A stretch of 63,954 bases of DNA, the filler included, from Stramenopiles sp. TOSAG23-6 (Eukaryota): the NCBI GenBank assembly GCA_900128565.1. It is 4 parts of 4 records of this genome, joined end to end, with 100 filler letters (N's around TTAATTAATTAA, not from the genome) between each part and the next. Parts side by side here need not be neighbours in the genome. Positions count along the whole stretch, not along the records: positions 50,787 to 63,954 come from LT636173.1; 3 more parts are not named here. One strand, 5' to 3'. Both the position numbers and the translations under genes were made by a program. Under the pieces are notes generated by a model. The model saw only the letters and a list, made by a program, of their open reading frames with translations, made no database searches and was not told the DNA's origin. Positions 8,929-63,954 of the stretch are shown piece by piece (the first letter of the stretch is position 1; the number at the start of each line of letters is the position of its first letter).

Positions 8929-11028
8929 ATGTTTATTCGCTATTCGAGATGCTTGATACCCTTAGTAAAGACCCAGCGTATGGCATTACATGCATCTAGT
9001 TTTCGTGTATCCAAGAATAGTCATACAAAAAACAAGTGCAACTCAATTTCTTTGACGTTGCCCCANAACTTTAGTATTGGTAAGGCAAGTAGCACACTTC
9101 AGACGAAATTTAGAAATAAAGATGAAATATATAAGTTTTACAAGATAACAGATATTTCCAAGAACAGTAGATTTGACTGGCGAAAAGCTGTGAATTTGTA
9201 TAAGCAACTTTTGAACAATGGTCTTGCTTGTGAGAAGGCATTAGACAGAATTGTCTTTGTACTGCANAAGGAATATAAGCCAGGTCGTGCCGAACATATT
9301 TTCAATATATCTATCAAACAAGGNATACAGCCATCACCTTGGGCATACTCAAGTATGATCCGTGTTATTGCAATATCCAGTCAAGATAAATTAGTGTCTC
9401 GACTTTCAGATAACTTTATCAAATTCGGTTGTGAGAGTAAAACAAAAAAAAATAGATTGACTTTTGAAACAATTGAAAACGCGCAAAATCAAGATATTGT
9501 GGTGAAGTGGCGCTGTGAGNCTATGTCCTACTTACTTCGAAATGGATCGTCGTATTCTACTCGTGCGCGAGATATTTTCTCCTCGGCACTTCGAGCAGGT
9601 CCAAAACATACAAATTATGCAATGTACGTTTTTATTTTTTTTTTTACAAAAAAATCGAATTTTTTTTTTTTTTTTTGGTAAAAAAATTTTGTACCTAACA
9701 AACTTTTTTAGATTTTTTTTTGAAATATTTTTCCAAAATACATGCTCCAGGTTTTGATACAAAATGAGACAAGTTCTAGAAATNTAGAAAAGTGGATTAG
9801 AGACTTTTTAGATTCGAAAGGAGTATTCGTTGATACTTTTCAAAGTACTTTTGAAAACAAAGACANTATGTTTTTGTCTCCAGTAAACTACGCAACACTT
9901 GCATCTGCATATGCTGTAGAAGGGAAATTTGCACTTGCAGAAGCTGTACTAAAACATATGGGTAGTTTGTACACTTTGTCGGATAGTTTATATTTTAAAA
10001 CACATGGCATGCATATACCTAAACAAAATCTTGCAAAATTAAAGCAGGTCAAGATCGTCGAAGCAGGAAAGATTCGTTATATAAATCAATTGGATAAACA
10101 ACAATCCGAAAGTGCTGAAAATGACACTCTACGATCTAAAGCAGCTGTCACTTTTATAAATATTTTGGATTTGCATCCCGATGGCTCAAGTGGTGTTCGA
10201 AAAAGAATATTAGGTCGAGAAAGTCTAGCTTCTCTTCGAGCTACATATATGAAAAGAATAAATATAGCTTGTAAGAAAGGTAAAACCAATGATTTACCTG
10301 TAAAAAATGCTTCAGATTTTTATAATAATTTATTGACGAAGGGATTAGTCGATAGTAATTTATTTATATATCTTACCAAATTGGTACCATTGGATGCAAC
10401 TGAAACAGAAGAATTATTTTATCGGAGTATAGAAAAAGGTGTGAAACCTTGTGCAGCAATGTGTAATCGGGTTATTCAATATTTTATGTTTGAAGCATTN
10501 AATGCCCGTGCACGGGAGACTCAAATATTTGCAGAAAATTCTACNGATTGTTGTAACACAGAATTGCAACACTTTTTTAAAGAATCTAGTCAACAATTTT
10601 ATAATAATCGAGCAGGATGTAGGTTTTCATTTTTTTTTTTCAATTTTTTTTCAATTTGTTTTTCATACGAAATTTTGTACCTAACATTTTTTTTTTTTTA
10701 AATATTTTTTCATAATCCATACATAGATAGATTTATTAGGAGTAATCGATATACAAAAGCTTTGGAAATATTTCAACGTATAGCTACTGCACGAAATCTA
10801 GATATAAAGATATGTTCATCAATTTTGCGATTTTTAGAGCAACAGAAAACAAAAGGTGTAACATTAGCTTATAAGCCAGACTTTATTATGGCAGCAATTC
10901 ATACTTCTGGGTTTAATATACCTGAAAATGTTTTAAAAGGAAAGGAAAATGTGAAATTTAATTCTAAACAAAGAATGAAAGAAATCAGGGAATATTTATA
11001 TCCCCGTAGGCATAAAAAAACTCTATAA
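8929..11028 (+). CDS. PPR-like helical repeat protein, 3 exons: 8929-9623, 9744-10618, 10721-11028
   Basis: PSPWAYSSMIR, VNYATLASAYAVEG and GVKPCAAMCNRVI are PPR-like; ORFs joined by two family-A introns. Confidence 0.7.
9624..9743 (+). other. Family-A intron (GT...AT, 120 nt)
   Basis: Consensus ends; the nearest downstream CAG gives a frameshift and stop, the CAT end is in frame. Confidence 0.8.
10619..10720 (+). other. Family-A intron (GT...AT, 102 nt; in-frame AG alternative at 10726)
   Basis: GTAGGTTTT...GTACCTAAC...CATAATCCAT. Confidence 0.7.
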
Positions 11029-11095: not shown

Positions 11096-14000
11096 TCATA
11101 CCTCAAACCCATTCCTTTCAGATATTTTTTGTCTTTTGGGGGTCTTTTTAGGTTGAATTTGATCTGAAAAATTTGGCTTAAATCCAATACGTTTTAAATT
11201 TTCCCACCAATTTATTCGAGCATACCATAAAGTACATTTCCTCTGTAATTCTGGAGAACGCTCTTTATATGGAATACTACCTTGAGCATCACCAAGTAGC
11301 ACAGGGAATAATTTTGATTTTTCATATTTTGGCTCATTGACAATATTGACGCCGATAATTGCTTCTGCNTGATCTAATAATTCCCACTCCTCTGAGCTTG
11401 GAAATCCTGTCGCACCTTTAGCAAGACGTTGAATATTTACTGGTNTCCCATGTCGCAAAGCCGTTACGTATTGTGAAAAACAATGTCAAATTCGAAATTC
11501 GTTACGAATGAAATTTGGTAAAAAAAAATACAATTTAAATAACTAAGCACAACGTACAATATATGACCAACTACAGTATTCGTTTTAATCATACTTTTCA
11601 TTGCAATACTTTCAACATGTTCTCCAGATTGAAATGCTAAATAACTCACTTCCCAATTATGAAGATTTCCATTTTTTTTTCGCTTATATATCGCATGTTT
11701 CCATGGTTTTTTCGGTACGAGTTCAATGGGAAGTTTTAAAGTTCTCGATCTTTTTTTTGTTACCCATCCATTATTTGAATTTTCCTGTCCCATTCCTAAA
11801 CCAAATTCTTTCAACATACTTTGTAATAATTGAGCTAATTTTTCAACACCTGTAATGCGCACACCCATGGTACGTAATGCATCCACTGATGTAGGTTGAC
11901 AGTAAGCTATTTGCTTCACCACATGATCCGGAATGACCGACACAGGAGCCATATGTAATTCAATCGCTCGTTCATTACGCCAATTGTACACTCTCTGGAT
12001 AAACTCTTTCAGATCTTTAACATATTTTGCAGCATTCATATCTCCCTCCATAGCCTTTTTTTCATATAACTGAATTTTTCGAAACCATTTTTTATGTGAA
12101 TTTGTTACAGGGCCCTCAAAACCAGCATCTTGTTCACTCTTTGGTATTTCATTTATATCTACACCTGCATTTTTTAATTCATTTTGAAGCTTTTNGATTT
12201 TTTCTGCTGCTGCCGCCTCATAGACGCGAATACTTTGTGGAACGGGCAACATGCATTGTGAGAAAATATTTTTTTTTTGGTTAAAACAAATTATATGAAA
12301 AAAATCGAAATTGAAAAAAAAAAAATTAATTTTAAATTGAAATGAATGATGAAAACAAACATAATCGATTCATTAGTTTTGATATATTTTTGACCTTTAC
12401 TTGTTAGAGAATACACATCATATGTGTTTGTATATGTAGTACCATAAATTTGTTTTGAAATTGTCTTTCTTTGTATATATTTTCCATTAAGTAACTCTGG
12501 GAGCAAACAAATTAGAAATTCAACCGATGAATGTTTCGATGGTAAATTCGATCTTTTTGTATCATTTTTGATACACTGTTTCAATCTTGTCTTTGGTAGA
12601 CTAGTGTTTTGAAGATTTTTCAAAACAATTCTTGATTCATCACCAAAGTTACGACAAAGATCATCTGCATGTATTTTGGAAAAATATTTCAAATCAAAAA
12701 AAAATTGTTAGGTACAAAATTTCGTACGAAACAAAAATTCATTTTTAAAAAAAAAAAAAAAAACATACATATTTCTCCTGGAATATACAATTATCACAAG
12801 TACCACACCTATTACCAAATGTAGGATTTTCTCCAAAATAATGCAATAAAAATCGACGTCGGCATCCTTTTGAATCACTTGTAAATGTACGTAAAGCATT
12901 TGTGCTTTTTGCTATTATTTTTTGAACGGCGACAGACTTCCCTCGGGTATAAAAGTCATTACTATACTTAGTAAAATCTGAATCTTTATATAATAAAAGA
13001 CATTCTGCAGTGAAACCATCTCGACCAGCACGACCGATTTGTTGGAAATATGCTTCAACTGTTTGTGGTGGTCCATGTATTGTGAAAAATATTTTACATT
13101 GAAATGTTTTATTAGGTACAAAAGTTCGTATGAAAAAAAAAAATATATATATATATATATATTCAAGTGTTTAAAACTAAAACGTCCATAATGATAAATT
13201 CTACGAATATCAGGTTTGTCAATACCCATACCAAACGCTAACGTTGCAGTCACTACTTGAACAGCACCTGAAAGAAACTTTTGGTGAGTGTCTTCTCGAG
13301 CATTTTTACTCATCTTACCGTGATACGACATACATTTAAACCCTAACCCTAACCTTGAAAAAGCTTTCGATAAACAAGACTGAATTTCATCCACTTCAGC
13401 TGTTGTGGGTGCATAAATGATGGTCGATCCAATTGCCATTTTATTAGAAGAAAGAATCGTATCTAGAAGAATCTGAAGATCAGAGTGAAGGCCATTTTTG
13501 CCTTTTTGTTTGACTGATATTTTTAAGTTAGAACGATCAAATGAATTAATACTCACTTTTACACTTTTTGGGTTCATTCCTAAAACCCTAATGATATCAC
13601 GCTGGACATTTGGAACTGCCGTAGCTGTAAGCGCCATCAGAGGGACATTTGGTATTGACTGGCGAAATTTGCCAAGGGCCATAAAATCTTTTCTAAAGTC
13701 ATGCCCCCATTCGCTCACACAATGAGCTTCATCAACTGCCAATAGTCCCAATTTACCACGTTGAGACAGCATTTGCAGACGAGAAAGAACGTTCCCCGAC
13801 AGCAGCTTCTCTGGAGTCAAGAAAACGACCTTGAAGACACCAGACAAAGCACGTTCGACAGTATAATCATGTTGTGCAGATCCAAGAAAACAAGCCAATG
13901 GTTCTTTTAAAACAGACCCAATGGTATTATTCATATTAATTACTTGATCCTGCATGAGACTGATGAGAGGGGAAACTACTATAGATATCATACCAGACTG

Positions 14001-16958: not shown

Positions 16959-17058
16959 NNNNNNNNNNNNNNNNNNNNNNNNNNNNNNNNNNNNNNNNNN
17001 NNTTAATTAATTAANNNNNNNNNNNNNNNNNNNNNNNNNNNNNNNNNNNNNNNNNNNN
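16959..17058. other. Artificial contig linker
   Basis: N-run, TTAATTAATTAA, N-run. Confidence 0.99.
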
Positions 17059-33824: not shown

Positions 33825-33924
33825 NNNNNNNNNNNNNNNNNNNNNNNNNNNNNNNNNNNNNNNNNNNNTTAATTAATTAANNNNNNNNNNNNNNNNNNNN
33901 NNNNNNNNNNNNNNNNNNNNNNNN
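33825..33924. other. Artificial contig linker
   Basis: N-run, TTAATTAATTAA, N-run. Confidence 0.99.
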
Positions 33925-50686: not shown

Positions 50687-50786
50687 NNNNNNNNNNNNNN
50701 NNNNNNNNNNNNNNNNNNNNNNNNNNNNNNTTAATTAATTAANNNNNNNNNNNNNNNNNNNNNNNNNNNNNNNNNNNNNNNNNNNN
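50687..50786. other. Artificial contig linker
   Basis: N-run, TTAATTAATTAA, N-run. Confidence 0.99.
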
Positions 50787-50866
50787 AAAAAAAAAAAAAA
50801 AAAAATTGTTAGGTACAAAATTTCGTATGAAAAAAAAAATTAAAAAATTCATGATGAAAAAAGTAC
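50787..50866 (-). other. Family-A intron, 5' part at contig edge
   Basis: GTACTTTTTT...CATACGAAATTTTGTACCTAAC. Confidence 0.7.
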
Positions 50867-51660
50867 ATTTTTTCGTGTACTTGTCTCAATGACAATGTTA
50901 AATACTCCATCTGATGTATATATTCCATTCAAATTAAGTGAACTGTCGCCAAATATTGTAAAATAATATTTCAAAAAATTGATTTTTTTGTTGGGTATAT
51001 AATTGTATAGGAAAAAAAAAATTCAATTTTGAAAACGTATATATGAAATAGACACTTTTAAAAAAAAAAAAAAAAAAATCGTTAGGTACGAAATTTCGTA
51101 GGAAAAAAAATAAAATTCATTCTACAAAAACATACATTTGAACCATCATCATTTCCATGAATAGAATGTGTTGATTGTGTTGGGACACCAACAAATAATA
51201 TTAATTCAATATCGTATAATGGATTATTTTTGTTTTTTACATTCTTGGATGTATTGTCAGATGATATATCTTTTGCCCAGGAGCATTCTACAGAAAATTG
51301 AGCGTTACTTAAATCACTTTTTAGACCTTTTACAGTGACTTTTTTACTACGACATAATTTTTCCAACTCTGGCTCTGAATCTACCATTTCATTTACAATA
51401 AAAGACATCACTTTATCTACATATGTTACTACTTGCTTTTGTCGAGAAAGTTTTGGAAGGTCTTCCTTCATGCACCAGAAAGGTAGCCTGTGTTGTTGAG
51501 TTTCAAATAAAGGTAACATATCAGTAGCGATTACGGGATATTCACCAACATTGACATCACCTTTATGACAATAATTTCCAAGTATAAAGAATGCATTTGA
51601 ATTAACTATTGTACTTTTTGATTCAACTACAGGCTTAAATAATACGTAGATGGAACGCAT
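50867..51660 (-). CDS. Hypothetical protein, 3'-partial (exons 51136-51660 and 50867-50950)
   Basis: ORF MRSIYVLF...DDGSN continues in phase 0 as GDSSLNLNG... after two tandem family-A elements. Confidence 0.55.
50951..51135 (-). other. Two tandem family-A introns, probably flanking a micro-exon
   Basis: Two core motifs; donors GTATG (51135) and ATACG (51040); final end TACAATATTT. Confidence 0.6.
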
Positions 51661-52131
51661 TTTTTTTTTTTTTTTTTTTTTTAAAGGAAATTCCGCACAG
51701 TTATTCAACAAAAACGTTTACCGCAACTCACCAAAAAAAAAAAAAGATGATCTCTATACCGTCGTTGATGATTAATACAATGAATTATCCAAAGAGTTGA
51801 TGATGCTTCACTTTGGTCTATGTAGAATCGTAATCTGATGAAATATTTTGGTTGCTTTTGTGGTGCAGAAAAGAGCGCCCTTTGTTTTTTTGCTCTCACA
51901 CAGCAGTCGGTTATAATTTTTAAAAAACCCTAACCCTAGTAAATATAAGCGATCTAGATCCAATAATAAATATTTAACGGTTGTTCATTTTTCATTTGCG
52001 CAACGTATCCTATATGTAATAATAATAATCGATTATTAAAGAAGATCACTGTATTAAACCATTTTACTTCATCACGTACATACTACATTTTCACTACAGC
52101 TATATCAAAGTAAATTCATTCACTGTGCAGA

Positions 52132-55100
52132 ATGCTGTCTCATGAAATAGCATCAGGAACGAATAAAGAAGTTCAGCAGAAGACAAATGCTTTAAAGGAT
52201 AAAGTGAGTGTGAAAATTGTTGCTCAGAACACCAAAAATCGTAAACCTCAACTTTCAAAGACATCTCCAAATGATGTGCATGTTGAATATGGAAATTACG
52301 AAATGGATGAAAGACAGGAAGTTCAATCTGGGTGCTTTTTACTGTTTTTACTCATAATTATTTTGGTCACTTTTCTTTTAACGTGGTCAACATATTCAAT
52401 CATTGAGTATGCAGATGGAAACGTGAATGATACATACATTTTTGGGTCGAGTGCACCTGCTTTACTCCTAATTATACTGGGTATCATGATCTACATTCTC
52501 CGAATTCGTAATAAGTCTTCGAAAAACGTCATTAATAATACAACATTATGTATTATTATGATACTATTAATGAGTGGCGCAGCTGTTGGAGGTTATTTTT
52601 CGATTAAAGAATTGTATGGTAAAAATTCATTTTGTGAGTATATGCGAAGCTTTCAAGTGAACATAAATCCCAATGAAATTTGTCAACGAAAACAACTGCT
52701 TGAAGAAATGGATAATAACATCAACGCCCATAATTCAAGTAATACAGAATGTTCAGCTAGTCAATCTAAATTAAGTCATCAAACGGAACTTGAAGTATTG
52801 CACTCACTTGGACTTCATGATGCTGAAGGTCTGTACAAACAATTTTTTGGCGGTTACTCTAGTACCCTGTCGTTGACCAATTATGATGCATGTACAAAAA
52901 TCGATTGGTCCGATGGAACAAAGAATGCAGAATGTACAGCTAAAGTTTCTCAAGCTGTAACACCTCCAAAACACCAAGGCGATTGCTCATCATCTTGGGC
53001 AATGGTGACAGTTGCACTTATTGAATCAGCGTATGTCATCCAAAGAGACGTAAAAGATGTCGTACCTTTTTCCGTTGAACATATTGTCAATTGTCAACCT
53101 ACTGTAAACGTAAATGGTAAAGATTATCATGGTTGTCATGGTGGGAATGCCGTATTTGCTTTACAGCAACTGAAATCTGAGGGTATCTGCACTGCTGAAA
53201 AGTATCCTTATTCATACTATAATCCAGCTGAAGTAACGAAATGCCTTGACAGCTCAAACTGTGATAAGTCTGTTGAAGCTCTTGAAACTAAAGCATTTGA
53301 GTATGAAACAGGAAAGGCGTGCAAAAATGAAATCACAGAGAAATGTACAGATGTGAGTGTAAAAAACATTTATAAAGTGGCAGAAGATGGGACAATGACA
53401 GAGGCTCAAATAAAAAAGGTACTTGCAAACAAAGGTCCAATTGCTATTGGGCTAAGTATAGACATTGCAAATGTGGGCGATTTTATGAAGAAACATACCT
53501 GCATCATTACTCCAACATGTGGCAATGTCACAGAATCCGGTTTAATTGTTGGTTACGATGAAACTGATTCTAATAACAAATATTGGAAAGTAAAAATGTC
53601 ATGGGGTGAGGAAATTGGTACTTTCTTGTCATACATTTTCATTTTTTTTTTCTTTTACCAAAAATAGTACCTAACAAATTGTATTACTGTAAAACATATC
53701 TTTTTTCATAATAGGTGAAGGTGGATTCATAAAACTCAAAATGGGAAGTGAAAAGTGTTTATATGATGGGTATTTTGTGGAAATAAATGATATTTCAGTA
53801 AAAACTCCGCCACCTACGGATCCAGTAAAAAAGCAACAAGTGGAGGCTGCGATAAAAACGGCAAGCGAAGGACACAAAAGTGTATTTTTTTTTCATGCAA
53901 ACATGAATGATTTTAGGTTTTAAATGATCATTTTTTATTTATTTTAAATATGTATGACATATTGTAAAGATTATTTACAGTATTTTCGGCTTATCTTCAA
54001 AAGATGAATGATTTTTGCTTTTACATGATAAAAGTTGTTATTCATTTGCAATACTATTTTGACATATTGTGTAGATTATTGCAAGTATTTTGGTTTTTCT
54101 TGCAAACATGAATTAGGGTTAGCTATTAAATGATAACAATGATTTTTTATATACAATATAATTGACATATTGTACAGATTATTGGATGTATTTTTGCTCT
54201 TCTTGCAAACATGAGTTAGCGTTAGCTATTAAATTATAATAGTATTTATTTATTTGAAGTACTCTTGACATATTGTGCAGATTATTTGCTGTATTTTTGT
54301 TTTTTCTTGCAATGATGGATGATGATTACTTTAGAATGATGAAAATGTTGATTTATTTCAAAAACCATTGACATATTGTATAGATTATTGAATGTATTTT
54401 TTTTTATTCAAAAGATGAATGATGATTACTTTTAAATGATAATAATGTTGATTTATTTCATATACTATTGACATATTGTACAGATTACTTGCTGCATTTT
54501 ATTTTTCTTGCAAAGATTATTAATGTTAGATTTTAAAATAACGATGTAAATTCATTTGAAGTACTATTGACATATTGTACAAATTATTGGTTATATTTTT
54601 GTTTTTCTTGCAATGATGGATGATGATTACTTTTACATGATAATAATGTTGATTTATTTCATATACTATTGACATATTGTACAGATTATTTGCTGTATTT
54701 TTGTTTTTCTTGCAATGATGGATGATGATTACTTTTAAATGATAAAAATGTTGATTTATTTCAAAAACCATTGGCATATTGTATAGATTATTGTTTGTAT
54801 TTTTGTTTTTCTTGTAATGACGGATGATGATTGCTTTTAAATGATAATAGTGTTGATTTATTTCATAAACTATTGACATATTGTACAATTTTTTTAACAT
54901 ATTTTTGTTTTTCTTGCAATGATGGATGATGATTACTTTTAAATGATAATAATGTTGATTTATTTCAAAAACCATTGACATATTGTATAGATTATTTGCT
55001 GTATTTTTGTTTTTCTTGCAATGACGGATGATGATTACTTTTAAATGATAATAATGTTGATTTATTTCAAATACTATTGACATATTGTATAGATTATTGT

Positions 55101-58100
55101 GCGTATTTTTGTTTTATTCAAAAGATGAATAATGTTNGCTTTTAGATGATAACAATATTTTATCATTTACAATATCTATGACATATTGTACAGATTATAG
55201 GATGTATTTTTGATTTTAATCAAAAGATGAATGATTTAGCTTTGAAATGATAATAATGCTTATTCATGTACAATATCCATGACATATTGTACAAATTATT
55301 GAAGGTATTTTTGTTTTTCTTGCAAAGATAAATTATGCTAGATTTTCAATAATATCAATGTTGATTCATTTTAGATACTTTTGATATATTGTACATATGA
55401 TTTTGTGTATCGTTGCTTTTCTTGCAAATATGAATAATGTATGCTTTGAAGAAACAACGTTGATTCATTTAAACTGCTAGTAACATATTGTACAAATTAT
55501 TGAAGGTATTTTTGTTGTTATTCAAAAGATGAATTATATTTGGTTTTAAATGATATCAATGCTTATTGATTTGAAATACTAGTGACANATTATGTAGATA
55601 ATTGGCAGTATTTTTGGCTTTATGCAAAAGATGAATGATGTTTGATTTTAAATGATAATATTTTTTATTCATTTTAAATACTATTGACATATTGTAGAGA
55701 TTATTGAGCGTATTTTTGAATTTGTGGAAAAGATGAATGAAGTTTGATTTTAAATAATAATATGTTTTATTTGTTTAAATACTATTGACATATTGTACAG
55801 ATTATTGGCAGTATTTTTGGATTTATGGAAAAGATTGATGGCGTTAACATTTAAATGATAATTAAATGATGATTTATTTTAAATACTATTGATATATTGT
55901 ACAGATTATTGTGGGTATTTTTGTTTTTGTTGCAAAGATGAATATTGTTTGCATTTTATTGATAACAATGTTCATTCATTGAAAATATTATTGACATATT
56001 GTAGAGATTATTGTACGACAAATGGATAAATTTGGTATTTTTGTTTTTATTCAAAAGATGAATAATGTTTGCATTTATATGATACAATATTTATTTATTT
56101 CAAATACTAGTGACATATTGTAGAGATTATTGGCCGTATTTTTGTTTTTGTGGAAAAGATGAATAATGTTTGCTTTTATATGAAAAAAATGTTGATTTAT
56201 TTAAAATACTATTGACATATTGTACAGATTATTTCCAGTATTTTTGTTTTTCTTGCAAATTTGAATGATGTTTGCTTTTATATGAAAAAAATGTTTCTCA
56301 TTTCAAATACTATTGACATATTGTGTAGATTATTTCAAGTATTTTTGTCTTTATTCAAAAGATGAATAATGTTTGCTTTTATATGATAAAAATGTTTATT
56401 TATTTAAAATATTAGTGACATATTGTAGAGATTATTGTCTGTATTTTTGTTTTTATTCAAAAGGTTGAATGATGTTTGCTTTTTAATGATGAAAATGCTT
56501 ATCTATTTCATATACTATTGACATATTGTAGAGATTATGGACTGTATTTTTGTTTTTGATCAAAAGATGAATAATGTTTGCTTTTTAATGATACTAATAT
56601 TTATTTTGTATACTAGTGACATATTGTACATATTATTTAATGTATTTTTGTTTTTAATCAAAAGATGAATACTGTTTTCTTTCAAATTACACCAATGTTT
56701 AATCATTTCCAATACTGAGGACATATTGTAGACATTATTAGACGTATTTTTGTTTTTATTCAAAAGGTTGAATGATGTTTGCTTTTTAATGATGAAAATG
56801 CTTATCTATTTCATATACTATTGACATATTGTAGAGATTATGGACTGTATTTTTGTTTTTGATCAAAAGATGAATAATGTTTGCTTTTATCTGAAAAAAA
56901 ATGTATATTTATTTCAAACAATATTGACATATTGTATGGATTATTGGAAGTATTTTTGTTTTTATTCAAATGATGAATGATGTTTGCTTTTACATGATAA
57001 AAATATTTATTTATTTCATATACTATTGACGTATTGTAGACATTATTGTACGTATTTTTTTTTTATTCAAAAGATGAATACTGTTTAGGGTTAGAATGAT
57101 ATAAATGTTGATTCATTTCAAATACTATTGACATATTGTAGAGATTATTGATGGTATTTTTGTTTTTATTCAAAAGATGAATAATGTTTGCTTTTATATG
57201 ATGAAAATGTTGATTTATTTCATATACTATTGACATATTGTACAAAATATTGACAGTATTTCTGTTTTTATTCAAAAGATGAATAATGTTTGCCTTTATA
57301 TGATGAAAATGTTGATTTATTTAAAATATTAGTGACATATTGTATAGATTATTGCTTGTATTTTGTTTTTATTCAAAAGATGAATGGTGTTTGCTTTAGA
57401 ATGATATCAATGTTTATTTATTTTGTATACTATTGACATATTATACAGATTATTGGACGTATTTTTGTTTTTCTTGCAAATTTGAATGATTTTTGCTTTA
57501 GAATGATAAAAATGTTTATTTATTTCATATATTATTGACATATTGTAGACATTATTGCAAGTATTTTTGTTTTCTTGCAAAGATGAATTATTTTAACTTT
57601 TACTTGATAACAATGTTTATTCATTAAAAATACTATTGACATATTGTAGAGATTATTTCGAGTATTTTTGTTTTCATTCAAAAGATGAATGATGTTTGCG
57701 TTTTAATGATAAAACTGTTTATTCATTTCATACACTAGTGACATATTGTAGACATTATTGATCGTATTTTTCTTTTATTCAAAAGGTTGAATGGTGTTTG
57801 CTTTTTAATGATAAAATTGCTTATTTATTTTGTATACTATTGACATATTGTACAGATTATTTCGAGTATTTTTGTTTTTTTTCAAAAGATGAATGATGTT
57901 TGCTTTGAAATGATAAATATGTTGATTTATTTCATATACTAGTGACATATTGTAGGCATTATTGAACGTATTTTTGGTTTTATTCAAAAGGTTGAATGAT
58001 GTTTGCTTTTGCATGATGAAAATATTTATTTATTTCAAATACTATTGACATATTGTACAGATTATTGCAAGTATCTTTGTTTGTATTCAAAAGATGAATG

Positions 58101-61100
58101 GTTTTAGCATTTTAATGATAATAATGATTATTTATTTCAAATACTATTCACATATTGTACAGATTATTGCCTGTATTTTGGTTTTATTCAAAAGATGAAT
58201 GATGTTTGCTTTAGAATGATATCAATGTTAATTTATTTAAAATACTATTGGAATATTTTACAGAGTATTGTATGTATTTTTGTTTTTATTCAAAAGATGA
58301 ATGATGTTTGCTTTTGCATGATGAAAATGTTTATTTATTTCAAATACTATTAACATATTGTATATATTATTGGCTGTATTTTTGTTTTATTCAAAAGATG
58401 AATGATGTTTACTTTAGAATGATATCAATGTTTATTTATTGAAAATAGTATTGAAAATATTGTAGAGATTATTGACCGTATTTTTGTTTTTATTCAAAAG
58501 ATGAATGATTTTAGCTTTTAAATGATAAAAATGTTGATTTAATTTGTATACTATTGACATATTGTACAGATTATTTAATGTATTTGTTTTTATTTAAAAG
58601 ATGAATGATTTTAGCTTTTAAATGATAAAAATGTTGATTTATTTTGTATACTATTGACATATTGTAGATATTATTTGAAGTATTTGTTTTTATTTAAAAG
58701 ATGAATGATTTTAGCTTTTAAATGATAAAAATGTTGATTTATTTCAAATACTGTTGACATATTGAATAGATTATTGACTGTATTTTTGTTTTTATTCAAA
58801 CAAAGAAAGATGTTTGATTTTGACATGATAAAAATGTTTATTTATTTCAAATACTGTTGACATATTGTAGAGATTATTAAAAGTATTTTTGTTTTTGTTC
58901 AAAAAATGAATACTTCTAGTTTTTAAATGATGTCAATGACTGTTTATTTCATATACTATTGACGTATTGTAGACATTATTGTTTGTATTTTTCTTTTATT
59001 CAAAAGGTTGAATGGTGTTTGCTTTTTAATGATAAACTGTTTATTTATTTATTTTGTATACTAGTGACATATTGTAGAGATTACTGGAAGTATTTTGTTT
59101 TTATTTGAAAGATTAATAATTTTAGGTTTAAATGATAACAATTGTTATTAATTTAAAATAGAATTGACATATTGTACAGATAATGCACCATATTTTGGTT
59201 TTTCTTACAAAGATGAATAATGTTTGCTTTTCAATGATAATAATGTTTATTCATTGAAAATACTATTGATATATTCTGAAGATTTTTTTGTGTATTGTTG
59301 TCTTTCTTGCTCTGGCAGATACTGATTTTTACTAAATATCAATATGTATTTATTTCATACACAAGTTACATATTGTAGAGATTATTGGCTGTATTTTTGT
59401 TTTTCTTACTATGATAAATGATGTTGGCTTTTGAATACAAAGAATGTGTTTTCATTTCCAATACAATTGACATATTGTACAGATTACTTGATGTATTTTT
59501 ACATTGGTGTAAAGATGAATAATATCAACTTTTAAATGATAAACATGTTCATTTATTTCAAATACTATTGACATATAGTTCAAATTTTTGTTTGTATTTT
59601 TACTCTTCTTGAAAAGATTAGTGATGGTTGCTTTTATATGATATTAATGTTTATTCATTTGTAAATACTATTGGCATATTCTCCAGATTATTGCGAGTAT
59701 TTTTATTCTTCTTGCATAGATGAATGATGGTTGGGTTTAATTGATAGTAATGATCATTTATTAATAATACTATTGACATATTGTAGACATTATTGACTGT
59801 ATTTTTGGTTTTATTCAAACAATGAATGATGTTTGCGCTTAAAGGATCATAATTATTATTTATTAATAATATTATTGACATATTCTAAAGATAATTTGAA
59901 GTATTGGGATTTTCCCTGCAGAAATGATTCATGTTTGCTTTGAAAATAACAATGTTTATTTATTTACAAAACTATTGACATATTCTAAAGATAATTGTGT
60001 GTATTTTTAATGTTGTGCCTATTCCAATATTGTTGGCTTTGAAAATAAAAACGGTTATTCATTTCAAATACTATTTGCATATTGTACAGGTCATTTGAAG
60101 TATTTTTGGTTTTCCTGCAAATATGAATATTATAACTTTTTCAATGATATCAATGTTTATTTATGTCAAATACGTTTGACATATTGTACAGATTATTGCG
60201 GGTAAATTTGTAGTTCTTACAAAGATAAATGATGCTAACTTTTGAAATAATGTTTATTTATGTCAAATACATTTGAGATATTGTATAGAGTATTGGCAGT
60301 ATTTTGGTAGTTCTTGCAGAGATGAATGATTTTAACTTTTAAAAAAAGGTTGATTCATTCGAAATACTATTGACATATTGTATAAATTATTGAAAGTATT
60401 TTTGAATTTTTTCCGAAGATGAATGATGTTCAATTTTTAAAGAATGTTTGTTTGTCCATTTCAAATACATTTGACATATTGTATGGATTATTGGCCGTAT
60501 TTTTGTTTTTATTCAAACGATGAGTGATGTTTTCTTTAGAATGATCACAATGTTTATTTATTTCAAATACAATTGATATATTGTATAGATTATTGACCGT
60601 ATTTTTGTTTTTCTTGAAAAGATGAATAATGTTTGCTTTAAAGTGATGAAACATTGATTCATTTTAGATACTATTGACATATTTTATAGATTATTGTTTG
60701 TATTTTTGTCGTTCTTGCAATGATGAATGATTTCACCTTAAATGATGGCAATATTTATTCATTTGAAATACGATTGACATATTGTTCAGATTTTTGTGCG
60801 TATTTTTGTTTTTCTGCATATATATGAATGGATTGTCCTTGTAAAGATTTAATTATATATTCATTTACAAAACAAGTGACATATTGTGTAGATTATTTCG
60901 AGTATTTTTGTTTTTTTGCATAGATGAATGATTTGTCCTTGTAAAGATTACATTATATATTCATTTCAAATACTATTGACATATTGTAGAGATTATTGTC
61001 AGTATTTTGTTTCTATTCAAAGGATGAATGGTGTTTGCTTTAAAATGATATCAATATTTATTTATTTCATATACTATTGACATATTGTAGACATTATTGA

Positions 61101-63943
61101 CTGTATTTTTGTTTTTATTCAAAAGATGAATGGTTTGAGCATTTTAATGATAATTAAATGATTATTTATTTCAAATACTATTGACATATTGTAGAGATTA
61201 TTGGCGGTATTTTTGTTTTTATTCAAAAGATGAAAAGTTTTTGCTTTAGAATGATAAAAATGTTGATTTATTTTGTATACTAGTGACATATTGTATAGAT
61301 TATTGGACGTATTTTTATTTTTATTCAAAAGATGAATGATGTTTGCTTTAGAATGATAAAACTGTTTATTTATTCAAAATACTGTTGACATATTGTACAG
61401 ATTATTGAAAGTATTTTTGTTTGTATTCAAAAGATGAATTATGTTTGCTTTTATATGATAATAATGTTTATTTAGTTAAAATATTAGTGACATATTGTAC
61501 ATATTATTGGGCGTATTTTTGTTTTTATTCCAAAGATGAATAATGTTTGCTTTTTAATGATAACAATGTTTATTTATTTTGTATACTAGTGACATATTGT
61601 ACATATTATTTGATGTATTTTTGTTTTTATTCAAAAGATGAATGATGTTTGCTTTAGAATGATATCAATGATTGTTCATTTAAAATACTATTGACATATT
61701 GTATAGATTATTGGATGTATTTTTATTTTTATTCAAACGATGAATAATGTTTAGTATGATAACAATGTTTATTTATTTCAAATAATGCTGACATATTGTA
61801 CAGATTATTTGTGGTATTTTGATTTTATTCAAAATATGAATAATGTTTGCTTTTAAATAATGACAGTGTTTATTCATTCAAAATATTACTGACATATTGA
61901 ATAGATTATTGAGAGTATCTTTGTTGTTTATGAAAAGATACCAAATTTATAGTTTGTAAAGATAATGTTATTTATGCATGTATAATACTATTGACATATT
62001 AGAAACATTATTATTGGGAGTATTTTGTGCTTTCTCTCAAAAATGGATGATCTTTGCTCGAAATAAAGTCAATATTGATTCATTTGAAAGATTGTTAATG
62101 TATTGTGCAAATTATGTTTAGTAATTTTGTTTCTCTTGGAAAGATAAATTATCTAAGCTTTCAAAAAAAATGTTTATTCATTTCAAATACTAGTGACATA
62201 TTGTATAGATTATTCAAGGTATGTTTTGTTTTTCTTTAAAAGATGAATAATGGTAGGTTTGAAGTGATAACAATATTTATTCATTTAAAATACAATTGAA
62301 ATATTGTATAGATTTTGATGTGTATTTTTGTTTTTGTTGTAAAGATGAATGATGATAGGTTTGAAGTGATAAAAANAATTATTCATTTGAAACACTAGTG
62401 ATATATTGTATAGATTATTTGNTGTATTTTTNTTTTTCTTNAAAAGATAACAATGTTTCCTTTTAAATGATAACAATATTTATTTCTTTCACTAGTGATA
62501 TATTGTTGAGATTATTGTTGGTACCTTTGCCTTTCTTGCAAAGTTTTGATTATTTTTTCTTTGGTATGATAAGAATAGTTATTTATTTGAAACACTATTG
62601 ATATATTGTATAGATTATTGGATGTATTTCTGTTTTTTTCAAAAAGAATGAATAATTTTTGTTTTTAAATGATATCAATGATTATTCATTTCAAATACTA
62701 GGGACATATTGTATAGATTATTTGACGTATTGGAATGTTCCTTGCAGAAAAAAATTGTGTTTACTTTGAAAATAACAATGTGTATCTATTTACAATACTA
62801 TTGACATATTCCAAAGATAATTGTGTGTATTTTTTTTTTGTGCTCCTTTTAATACTGTTGGTTTTGAAAATTAAAATGGTTATTTATTTAAAATACTTTT
62901 GACATATTGTATAGATTCTTGACAGTATTTTTGCTTTTCTTCAAAAGATGAATACTGTTGACTTTACAATGATAAAAATATTTTTTCATTTTAAATAGTA
63001 TTGACATATTGTAGAGATTATTGCAAGTATTTTTGTTTTTATTCAAAAGATGAATGATGTCTGCTTTTTTACATGAGAAAAATGTTTATTCATTTAAAAT
63101 AGTTTTGACATATTGTAGAGATTACTGTTGGTATTTTTGTTTTTATTCAAAAGATGTATTATGTGTGCTTTAGAATGATATCAATGTTTATTTATTTCAA
63201 ATACTATTAAACTATTGTAGGCATTATTGGGCGTATTTTTGTTTTTATTCAAAAGATGAATAATTTTAGTTTTTAAATGATATCAATGATTGTTCATTTC
63301 AAATACTATTGACATATTTTACAGAATATTGTGTGTATTTTAGTTTTGGTACAAATATGAGTGATGTTTACTTTTGAAAAGCAAAATAAGTCATTGAAAA
63401 TCTCTTTTGACATATTGCACAGATTATTGGTTGTATTTTTTTTTTATTCAAAAGGTTGAATGGTGTTTTCTTTGAAATGATAATAATGTTTATTTATTTC
63501 AAATACAATTGACATATTGTAGAGATTATTGGTTGTATTTGTGTTTTTATTCAAAAGATGAATAATGTTTGCTTTTATATGATAAAACTGTTTATTCATT
63601 CAAAATACTATTGACATATTGTAGAGAGTATTGAACGTATTTTTATTTTTATTCAAAAGATGAATACTGTTTGCTTTAGAATGATATCAATGTTTATTTA
63701 TTTCAAATACTAAGTGACATATTGTAGACATTATTGGGTGTATTTTATTTTTATTCAAAAGATGAATAATGTTTAGGGTTAGAATGATATAAATGTTTAT
63801 TTATTTCAAATACTACTGACATATTGTAGACATTATTGGCGGTATTTTTGTTTTTATTCAAAAGATGAATGATGTTTGCTTTTAGATGCTAAAAATGTTT
63901 ATTTATTTCCTACACCAGTGACATATTTTACAGATTATTGAAT
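52132..63943 (+). CDS. Membrane-anchored papain-family (C1A) pseudoprotease with micro-exon-encoded C-terminal extension; runs off window
   Basis: Exons 52132-53617 and 53715-53881 are well supported (QGDCSSSWA, SVEHIVNC, GCHGG, IVGY, YWKVKMSWG, GEGGFIKL). The 99 micro-exons from 53977 on are inferred. Confidence 0.75.
53618..53714 (+). other. Canonical GT-AG intron carrying the family-A core
   Basis: GTACTT...GTACCTAAC...CATAATAG; restores SWGEEIGEGGF. Confidence 0.88.
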
Positions 63944-63954
63944 GTATTTTCAAT
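53882..63954 (+). repeat. Array of ~99 ~102-bp units: ~99-nt conserved intron-like unit (family B) plus 3-nt variable exon
   Basis: Consensus GTATTTTTGTTTTTATTCAAAAGATGAAT...TACTATTGACATATTGTAsAGATTATTk followed by NNN; the repeat itself is certain, the intron reading is inferred. Confidence 0.9.

Follow-up and report, generated by a model that had tools for sequence, protein, structure and literature searches.

Can the end of a gene be divided so finely that each of dozens of consecutive exons carries a single codon? The question is raised by a 63,954-nt stretch of DNA (the window) from the uncultured marine protist Stramenopiles sp. TOSAG23-6 (GenBank assembly GCA_900128565.1), in which the last ordinary exon of a papain-like gene runs directly into a tandem array of 99 units, each composed of a 99-nt element and a 3-nt slot. 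A sequence-only reading of this locus had described the elements as phase 0 introns forming local subfamilies and the slots as codons that differ between similar units, and had suggested three ways in which such an arrangement might have grown. Our analysis favours, tentatively and with slightly less than even confidence, the view that the array consists of intron-like elements separated by single in-frame codons. The vocabulary of the earlier reading is retained here with qualification: the codon nature of the slots is a statistical case, 'intron' and 'phase 0' are putative terms, and the putative 3′ border of the element is not AG.

The window is made up of four contigs joined by artificial spacers (44 N, TTAATTAATTAA, 44 N) at positions 16959-17058, 33825-33924 and 50687-50786, so genes on either side of each join are unlinked. 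Both the array and the papain-like gene lie on the last contig (LT636173.1), which extends from 50787 to the end of the window.

Architecture of the array

A profile built from 35 clean units divides the array (53882..63954, + strand) into 99 units of ~102 nt, numbered u1 to u99 and arranged head to tail, which were then aligned; the array reaches the end of the window, where a 100th element begins at 63944. Tandem Repeats Finder reports a repeat at 53881-63950 with a period of 102 nt (99.1 copies, 75% matches), a 204-nt period scoring slightly higher. The 99-nt element (GTATTTTTG...TTGACATATTGTAnAGATTATT[G/T]) follows the plan GTATTTTTG ... AAAGATGAATGATG ... TACTATTGACATATTGTAnAGATTATT[G/T], after which come the three bases of the slot. 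These three contiguous columns have the highest entropies of the entire unit (1.91, 1.92 and 1.88 bits), and their flanks are nearly invariant, with values below 0.45 bit for the six preceding bases and of at most 0.49 bit for the eight that follow.

The gap from ATTATT[G/T] to the next GTAT measures 3 nt at 98 of the 99 junctions and 21 nt at the other, and the indels that give 56/99 units a length other than 102 nt all fall outside the slots. The sole long slot (56014..56034, +) reads TAC GAC AAA TGG ATA AAT TTG, is open in the slot frame, and is spanned without gaps by a metagenome contig (55914-56071, 8 differences). Most elements (95/99) start with GT, three with AT and one with GC; among the 36 most diverged units, element ends remain 0.84-0.87 identical to the consensus, compared with 0.66-0.78 for the interior. 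The three elements that start with A, in u8 (54593), u11 (54899) and u53 (59190), all end in T before the slot, an ending found in 25/99 elements overall. Since two of the three A-starting elements are close relatives, covariation of the first and last bases is no more than hinted at.

No Rfam family matched 50787-63954 at E values up to 1, and no tRNA was found in the array. The element RNA yielded no consensus fold (mean z -0.14 over 33 units), and inspection of the element consensus revealed no terminal inverted repeats. A profile search of the whole window returned no element copy outside the array at E <1, and the end motifs are likewise confined to it. Scanning of metagenomes with the 3′ block identified 95 loci, none of them a real unit, and nhmmer gave one partial match of 39 nt (E 7.7e-4).

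Codon-like properties of the slots

The last ordinary exon (53715..53881, +) encodes the last part of the protease-like domain, followed by a Pro-rich tail (...TPPPTDPVKKQQVEAAIKTASEGHKS), and closes with AGT, a complete codon. The first base of the array, immediately after this codon (...AAA AGT followed by GTATTT), is also the first base of an element, and the frame of the slots is that of the upstream gene. None of the 98 readable triplets is a stop codon (one triplet containing an N was set aside), compared with a mean of 4.29 stops in column shuffles, which reach zero with P=0.005 (20000 trials). Shifting the frame one base to the left gives 9 stops in 99 triplets, against 7.0 expected.

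When joined, the slots form 105 stop-free codons, eight of them for Cys, in frame with the gene. GC content by slot position is 0.50/0.49/0.32 (0.44 over 294 bases), compared with 0.48/0.38/0.27 for the codons in the window's long open frames (7426 codons) and 0.23 for the array as a whole.

Local subfamilies and copying between units

Three groups of units had been singled out by the sequence-only reading, and each was recovered in the alignment. The first, said to share a variant at ~54290-55100, corresponds to the youngest local subfamily, u5-u12 (54291..55102, +): its 23-nt signature GCAATGATGGATGATGATTACTT has exact copies at 54309, 54610, 54712 and 54916 and one with at most two mismatches at 55018, these matches falling in u5, u8, u9, u11 and u12, while by eye u10 carries it with three changes, u6 has only its 3′ half and u7 lacks it. 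The six carriers have a mean identity of 0.909, compared with 0.746 array-wide. In the second group, u46-u48 (58478..58779, +), elements with pairwise identities of 0.919, 0.918 and 0.869 are indeed followed by three different triplets (AAT, GAA and ACT), and u47 and u48 share an exact 65-nt repeat that begins at the first base of the element. The third comprises the more diverged blocks u51-u70 (58985..61001, +), in which element ends are better kept than interiors, and u80-u90 (61915..63026, +); these units are only 0.67-0.90 identical to the consensus, the values for u21-u50, u71-u79 and u91-u99 being mostly 0.82-0.94. Within the second of these blocks, u88-u89 are an old long-range copy of u60-u61 (tree support 0.999 and 0.86; identities 0.87 and 0.76).

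Whether unit similarity tracks position depends on the scale considered. At short range it does: mean identities at lags 1 to 4 are 0.770, 0.759, 0.756 and 0.755, compared with 0.746 overall, values reached by 0, 1, 20 and 29 of 5000 permutations, respectively, and the closest relative lies no more than three units away for 29/99 units (0/5000 permutations). In a maximum-likelihood tree computed on 117 element columns, 11 of 34 cherries join units at most three positions apart (null mean 2.05; 0/5000), and the median separation of cherries is 12 units as against 29.5 (P=0.0004). Across the array as a whole there is no global gradient of similarity with distance (Spearman -0.045; 224/2000 permutations as low), so the earlier reading withstands its own refuting condition, a lack of correlation between similarity and position, only on the local scale. 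An exact tract of 145 nt (56441..56585, +, identical to 56744-56888) runs from the first base of one element to 42 nt into the next and includes the slot ACT. Copy events thus seem to act on elements, to be capable of taking a slot along, and to start at the element's 5′ border.

The slot triplets mostly do not follow the elements. The two triplets flanking an element are identical in just 2/98 cases, which is estimated to be about chance level, so there is no target duplication, in agreement with what had been claimed. Also as claimed, codons differ among similar units: across 31 pairs of elements at least 0.90 identical, the per-site identity of the following and preceding triplets is 0.24 and 0.28, respectively, near the baseline of 0.27. 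The proposed comparison of sister units for shared codons gave a largely negative answer with some coupling. The following triplet is common to 4/34 cherries (null 0.90, P=0.011), and the 145-nt tract carries its slot; GCT occupies 4 of the 9 junctions from u4/u5 to u12/u13 in the youngest subfamily, and the inner triplet TGT of u60-u61 is retained in the old copy at u88-u89. No lag in the triplet series is significant for periodicity after correction, and triplets two units apart are identical six times, an estimated twice the chance level.

Element similarity and slot triplets are therefore largely independent, with incomplete uncoupling. It follows from this uncoupling that the triplets are not simply fast-decaying copies, and they are not hypermutable in general. 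Of the three origins put forward earlier, gene conversion sparing the exons does not hold in its strict form, because some sister units and the 145-nt tract share triplets; element-wise conversion with selected triplets still fits. Duplication of intron plus codon followed by codon divergence can account for a minority of units only. A further model is stepwise insertion into an older frame at 3-nt spacing. This model and element-wise conversion with selected triplets both fit better than duplication followed by divergence, and cannot be distinguished from each other here.

The host gene and its surroundings

The large exon of the papain-like gene (52132..53617, +; Pfam PF00112, E 2.6e-29) lies in an open frame spanning 52114-53667, and its start is uncertain. 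A 97-nt GT-AG intron (53618..53714, +) separates it from the last ordinary exon, and removal of this intron restores the frame, SWGEEIG being followed by EGGFIKL. Alignment to the solved structure of a plant cysteine endopeptidase (1s4v_A) shows Ser at both catalytic positions, those of Cys and His (...CSSSW... in the query vs. ...CGSCW... in the template, and ...ESGL... vs. ...DHGV...); the protein is probably a pseudo-protease and no active cysteine protease. On its N-terminal side the domain has a hydrophobic stretch, and on its C-terminal side a Pro-rich hinge. An exhaustive HMMER search identified distant papain relatives only (best E 6.8e-20; identity no higher than 43% among the 150 matches listed), and no match turned up in the protein database for the large exon, for the last exon when longer proteins were searched, or for residues 300-498 when shorter ones were.

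Elsewhere in the window, a mitochondrial-type contig (33925-50686, GC ~0.22) carries tRNA-Ser, tRNA-Asp and open frames named by eye from their translations as rps8, rps14, tatC-like, nad9, rpl14, rpl5, nad4L, nad1 and nad11, the last of which is open only if TGA (four codons) is read as Trp.

The IE-1 introner family

A second element family, termed IE-1, is dispersed over 1-33824 and 50787-53714, with copies for example at 13071-13183 (-), near 12690-12790 (-), at 9640-9760 (+) and at 53618-53714 (+). IE-1 elements are ~99 nt long and of the form [AT]GTAYGTTTT...TTTCGTACGAAATTTTGTACCTAAC...GAAATATTTTTCCAAAATAC[AT], with GTA...TAC at their ends, a direct repeat of AT and GTACCTAAC in the interior; there are 13 GTACCTAAC sites, several of them at contig ends. 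When aligned with IE-1 copies, the intron of the protease-like gene (53618-53714) proves to be a diverged member of the family that has GTACCTAAC and GT-AG ends.

Removal of the element together with one AT restored the reading frame in all five copies that were read through, namely the copy in a RecQ-like gene near 13071-13183 and those at 12715, 7945, 6721 and 9691. The Helicase_C match in the RecQ-like gene breaks off at the IE-1 border, having reached profile position 91 of 110, and the next piece resumes beyond it with ...QQIGRAGRDG; by our reading, the nearest GT..AG choice would delete four residues of this motif. The borders used are AT..AC or GT..AT, not GT..AG. From this restoration of frames we conclude that one or more intron families of this genome are removed at borders other than GT-AG, which provides a precedent for the array element. 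Contig depth over IE-1 is 15278, compared with ~23 beside it (~600 times the neighbouring gene), and contigs break inside the element. Homology between IE-1 and the array element is not significant (z=2.0; 21/500 shuffles score as high).

A candidate split gene and its rivals

The reading that we favour would place at least 99 copies of one discrete 99-nt element in the 3′ part of the papain-like gene, with one sense codon between successive copies. Transcription, splicing and translation of the array, like its mode of origin, are what we infer here. The transcript would continue from exon 53715-53881 into the array, and each element would be excised individually, from its GT to the final G or T of ATTATT[G/T]; successive joins would extend ...GGACACAAAAGT (...AAAAGT) by ACA, CAA, GAT and GCT, skipping 99 nt each time. 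The triplets and the one 21-nt slot would together encode a tail of at least 105 residues, with its eight Cys, behind the Pro-rich hinge. Elements would be renewed locally by short copy or conversion events tending to start at their first base, which would explain why subfamilies lie side by side. The triplets would mostly be retained, being coding sequence that is under selection now or was so recently, or, alternatively, the remnants of a once continuous frame into which elements were set at 3-nt steps. A more specific version of this history holds that the C-terminal residues, at least 105 in number, are encoded codon by codon, and that at least 99 paralogous 99-nt non-AG introns were made by an element copying itself beside a resident copy at a fixed 3-nt step, 'walking' through an older frame, and have been kept in order by element-wise conversion from the first base; taken as a whole, this version strikes us as rather unlikely.

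Several observations weigh against single-codon exons. The elements have the GT 5′ end of a U2-type GT-AG intron and lack its AG 3′ end: the putative 3′ border is TG in 67/99 units, TT in 23/99 and AG in only 1/99, and a conventional acceptor AG is instead found 7 nt upstream of the slot in 70/99. The array has no CCTAAC (0 occurrences), unlike the window's other introns, and also lacks the GTACCTAAC motif; TTGAC occurs 66 times in the array, 19 nt before the slot. TA is generally scarce in the slots, which partly explains the avoidance of stops, and, given the first two letters of each triplet, the absence of stops has P ~0.016 (hand calculation). Among stop-free shuffles, the fit to codon usage reaches only P=0.10. 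The conceptual slot peptide has no significant match among the 150 distant papain homologues or to the domain profile; its best E value in the set of 150 is 0.006, compared with 0.012 for the best of 20 shuffles, and 106/200 shuffles score as high. The element is not dispersed, neither a copy nor an end motif being present in the other ~37 kb of nuclear DNA. Finally, no gene with one-codon exons following one another by the dozen is known to us.

A non-coding 102-nt satellite in or behind the 3′ end of the gene is a real possibility, although one that we are inclined to doubt. The slot would then be a linker with no coding role, the frame would end 14 codons into unit 1 (...GHKSVFFFHANMNDFRF, then a stop), and the codon-like traits would be due to chance or to an undescribed process at the junctions. 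The locus does look like a satellite in being a long head-to-tail array of one AT-rich monomer, present in 99 copies up to the end of the contig, with concerted local evolution and a slightly better-scoring 204-nt period. The rapid closure of the unspliced frame, a slot border with neither AG nor a branch motif of the local kind, the confinement of the element to the array, and the share of stop avoidance attributable to TA shortage all point in the same direction. In contrast, no mechanism known to us would maintain a saturated linker of exactly 3 nt between flanks more than 90% conserved. A neutral linker should drift towards the array GC of 0.23, whereas the slots stand at 0.44 with a codon-like positional gradient, and they contain 0 stops where 4.3 are expected. 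Nor would a satellite account for slots that are in frame with the gene, or for a single long slot of 21 nt that is open.

Ordinary GT-AG splicing offers a more conventional account, in which introns of ~92 nt (GTATTTTTG...TTGTAnAG) alternate with exons of 10 nt (ATTATTGNNN); alternatively, a single long intron or untranslated region takes up the array from end to end. Translation would stop after a short tail, and the slots would simply be the least constrained exon bases. This account requires no unusual chemistry for the conserved 5′ and 3′ blocks, and draws on the 95/99 GT starts and on an AG conventionally placed, in 70/99 units, behind TTGAC and a T-rich stretch. The same AG is missing from the other 29/99 units, however, and the 10-nt model reads 15 codons before meeting a stop (its 330 codons contain 15 stops), which would leave ~95 further spliced micro-exons behind that stop. 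Neither version explains the near-invariant ATTATT, the three variable bases, the avoidance of stops or the in-frame 21-nt slot, and we consider the account improbable.

Coding on the minus strand, as a tandem repeat of 34 residues (...KNKNTxNNLYNMSIVFEINKHFYHLKANIIHLLN, with x the hypervariable slot residue), was rejected for lack of coding constraint in that frame, and its probability is very small. One consensus frame is open over the 34 codons, the youngest subfamily contains a 195-residue open frame (54526-55113), and third positions are somewhat more variable than the others (0.81 vs. 0.60 and 0.62 bits), but the effect of phase on variability is not significant (P=0.13). Observed/expected ratios are 1.05 for synonymous, 1.01 for non-synonymous (ratio 0.97) and 0.99 for stop-creating changes (67 vs. 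67.5), the frame is stop-free in only 18 of 41 units of exactly 102 nt, and most of the lengths found in the 56/99 other-sized units would break it.

We give scarcely any credence to an artefact of repeat assembly or amplification, whether in the array itself or in the way its units are ordered. In its favour are the small size of the likely source runs, the breaking of conserved blocks into short contigs and the alternative unit joins that are seen. Against it, 8994 of 9394 distinct 31-mers in the array are single-copy and the rest recur at most five times; an independent re-assembly of the probable source runs gave a 2668-nt contig that covers the gene plus the first 4.4 units without a single difference; diverged units are matched exactly by contigs of 242-739 nt; two later marine metagenomes from other studies cover parts of the array at ~87-99% identity; and every slot with its flanks fits inside one read.

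Contigs exactly matching diverged units (59146-62370) have about twice the depth of the gene region (51089-54330) in both runs of the probable source sample (34-50 vs. 23-25 and 24-26 vs. 14-15), and the array may be present twice or may have been amplified unevenly. The use of read depth as a sign of further arrays was abandoned, as contigs were placed at 85% likeness, units cross-map and some 31-mers recur within the array.

Comparison with known systems

Introner elements are transposon-like introns of Micromonas, Aureococcus and many aquatic protists, reportedly treated by Huff et al. in 2016. The array element resembles introners in belonging to a family of near-identical short introns (putative ones, in its case), some of which have borders other than GT-AG, as IE-1 does in this genome. 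Introners are dispersed singly in many genes and have target duplications or inverted ends, whereas the array element occurs only head to tail at 3-nt spacing, has no copy in unrelated genes within the other ~37 kb of nuclear DNA, and shows neither duplication nor inverted ends. Removal of introners, which form families of near-identical short introns, restores the frame, and non-canonical ones are described from Amoebophrya (PMC7789003).

Satellites share with the array their AT-rich, head-to-tail monomers of ~100 nt, the greater similarity of neighbours, blocks of different age and the position at a contig end. Defined element ends and a hypervariable linker of fixed length are features that the array has and satellites do not; nor does a satellite start at an element's first base in frame with a gene or have a linker that avoids stops.

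In known micro-exon genes, such as those of schistosomes, the exons measure 6-36 nt, number from a few to some tens and are separated by unrelated canonical introns. The array resembles them in its very short, symmetric putative exons, all multiples of three (here 98 of 3 nt and one of 21), and differs from them in its run of at least 99 consecutive putative one-codon exons, its paralogous introns and its non-AG end. Single micro-exons of 3 nt occur in animals and dinoflagellates. Exons of 3 nt are mentioned in PMC12584245. The nonconventional introns of euglenids and diplonemids also lack GT-AG borders and are removed precisely, as array elements putatively are; they rely on base pairing between their two ends, whereas the array element has no conserved structure. 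Our search of the literature, which did not cover subscription journals and supplements, found nothing similar on tandem intron arrays with one-codon exons.

Implications

Should splicing of the elements be real, no split gene known to us would be more extreme, and the gene structure would be one not described before. Such a case would put dozens of one-codon exons within the reach of a spliceosome that works by intron definition, together with the use of TG or TT ends. Intron gain by local, ruler-like copying would then be readable from sequence, which bears on how introns multiply. Even if the array is non-coding, a satellite with defined ends and a fixed, hypervariable, stop-avoiding 3-nt linker would call for an as yet undescribed mechanism at the junctions. 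These contigs also document, for an uncultured marine protist, an introner family that is highly abundant and has borders other than GT-AG.

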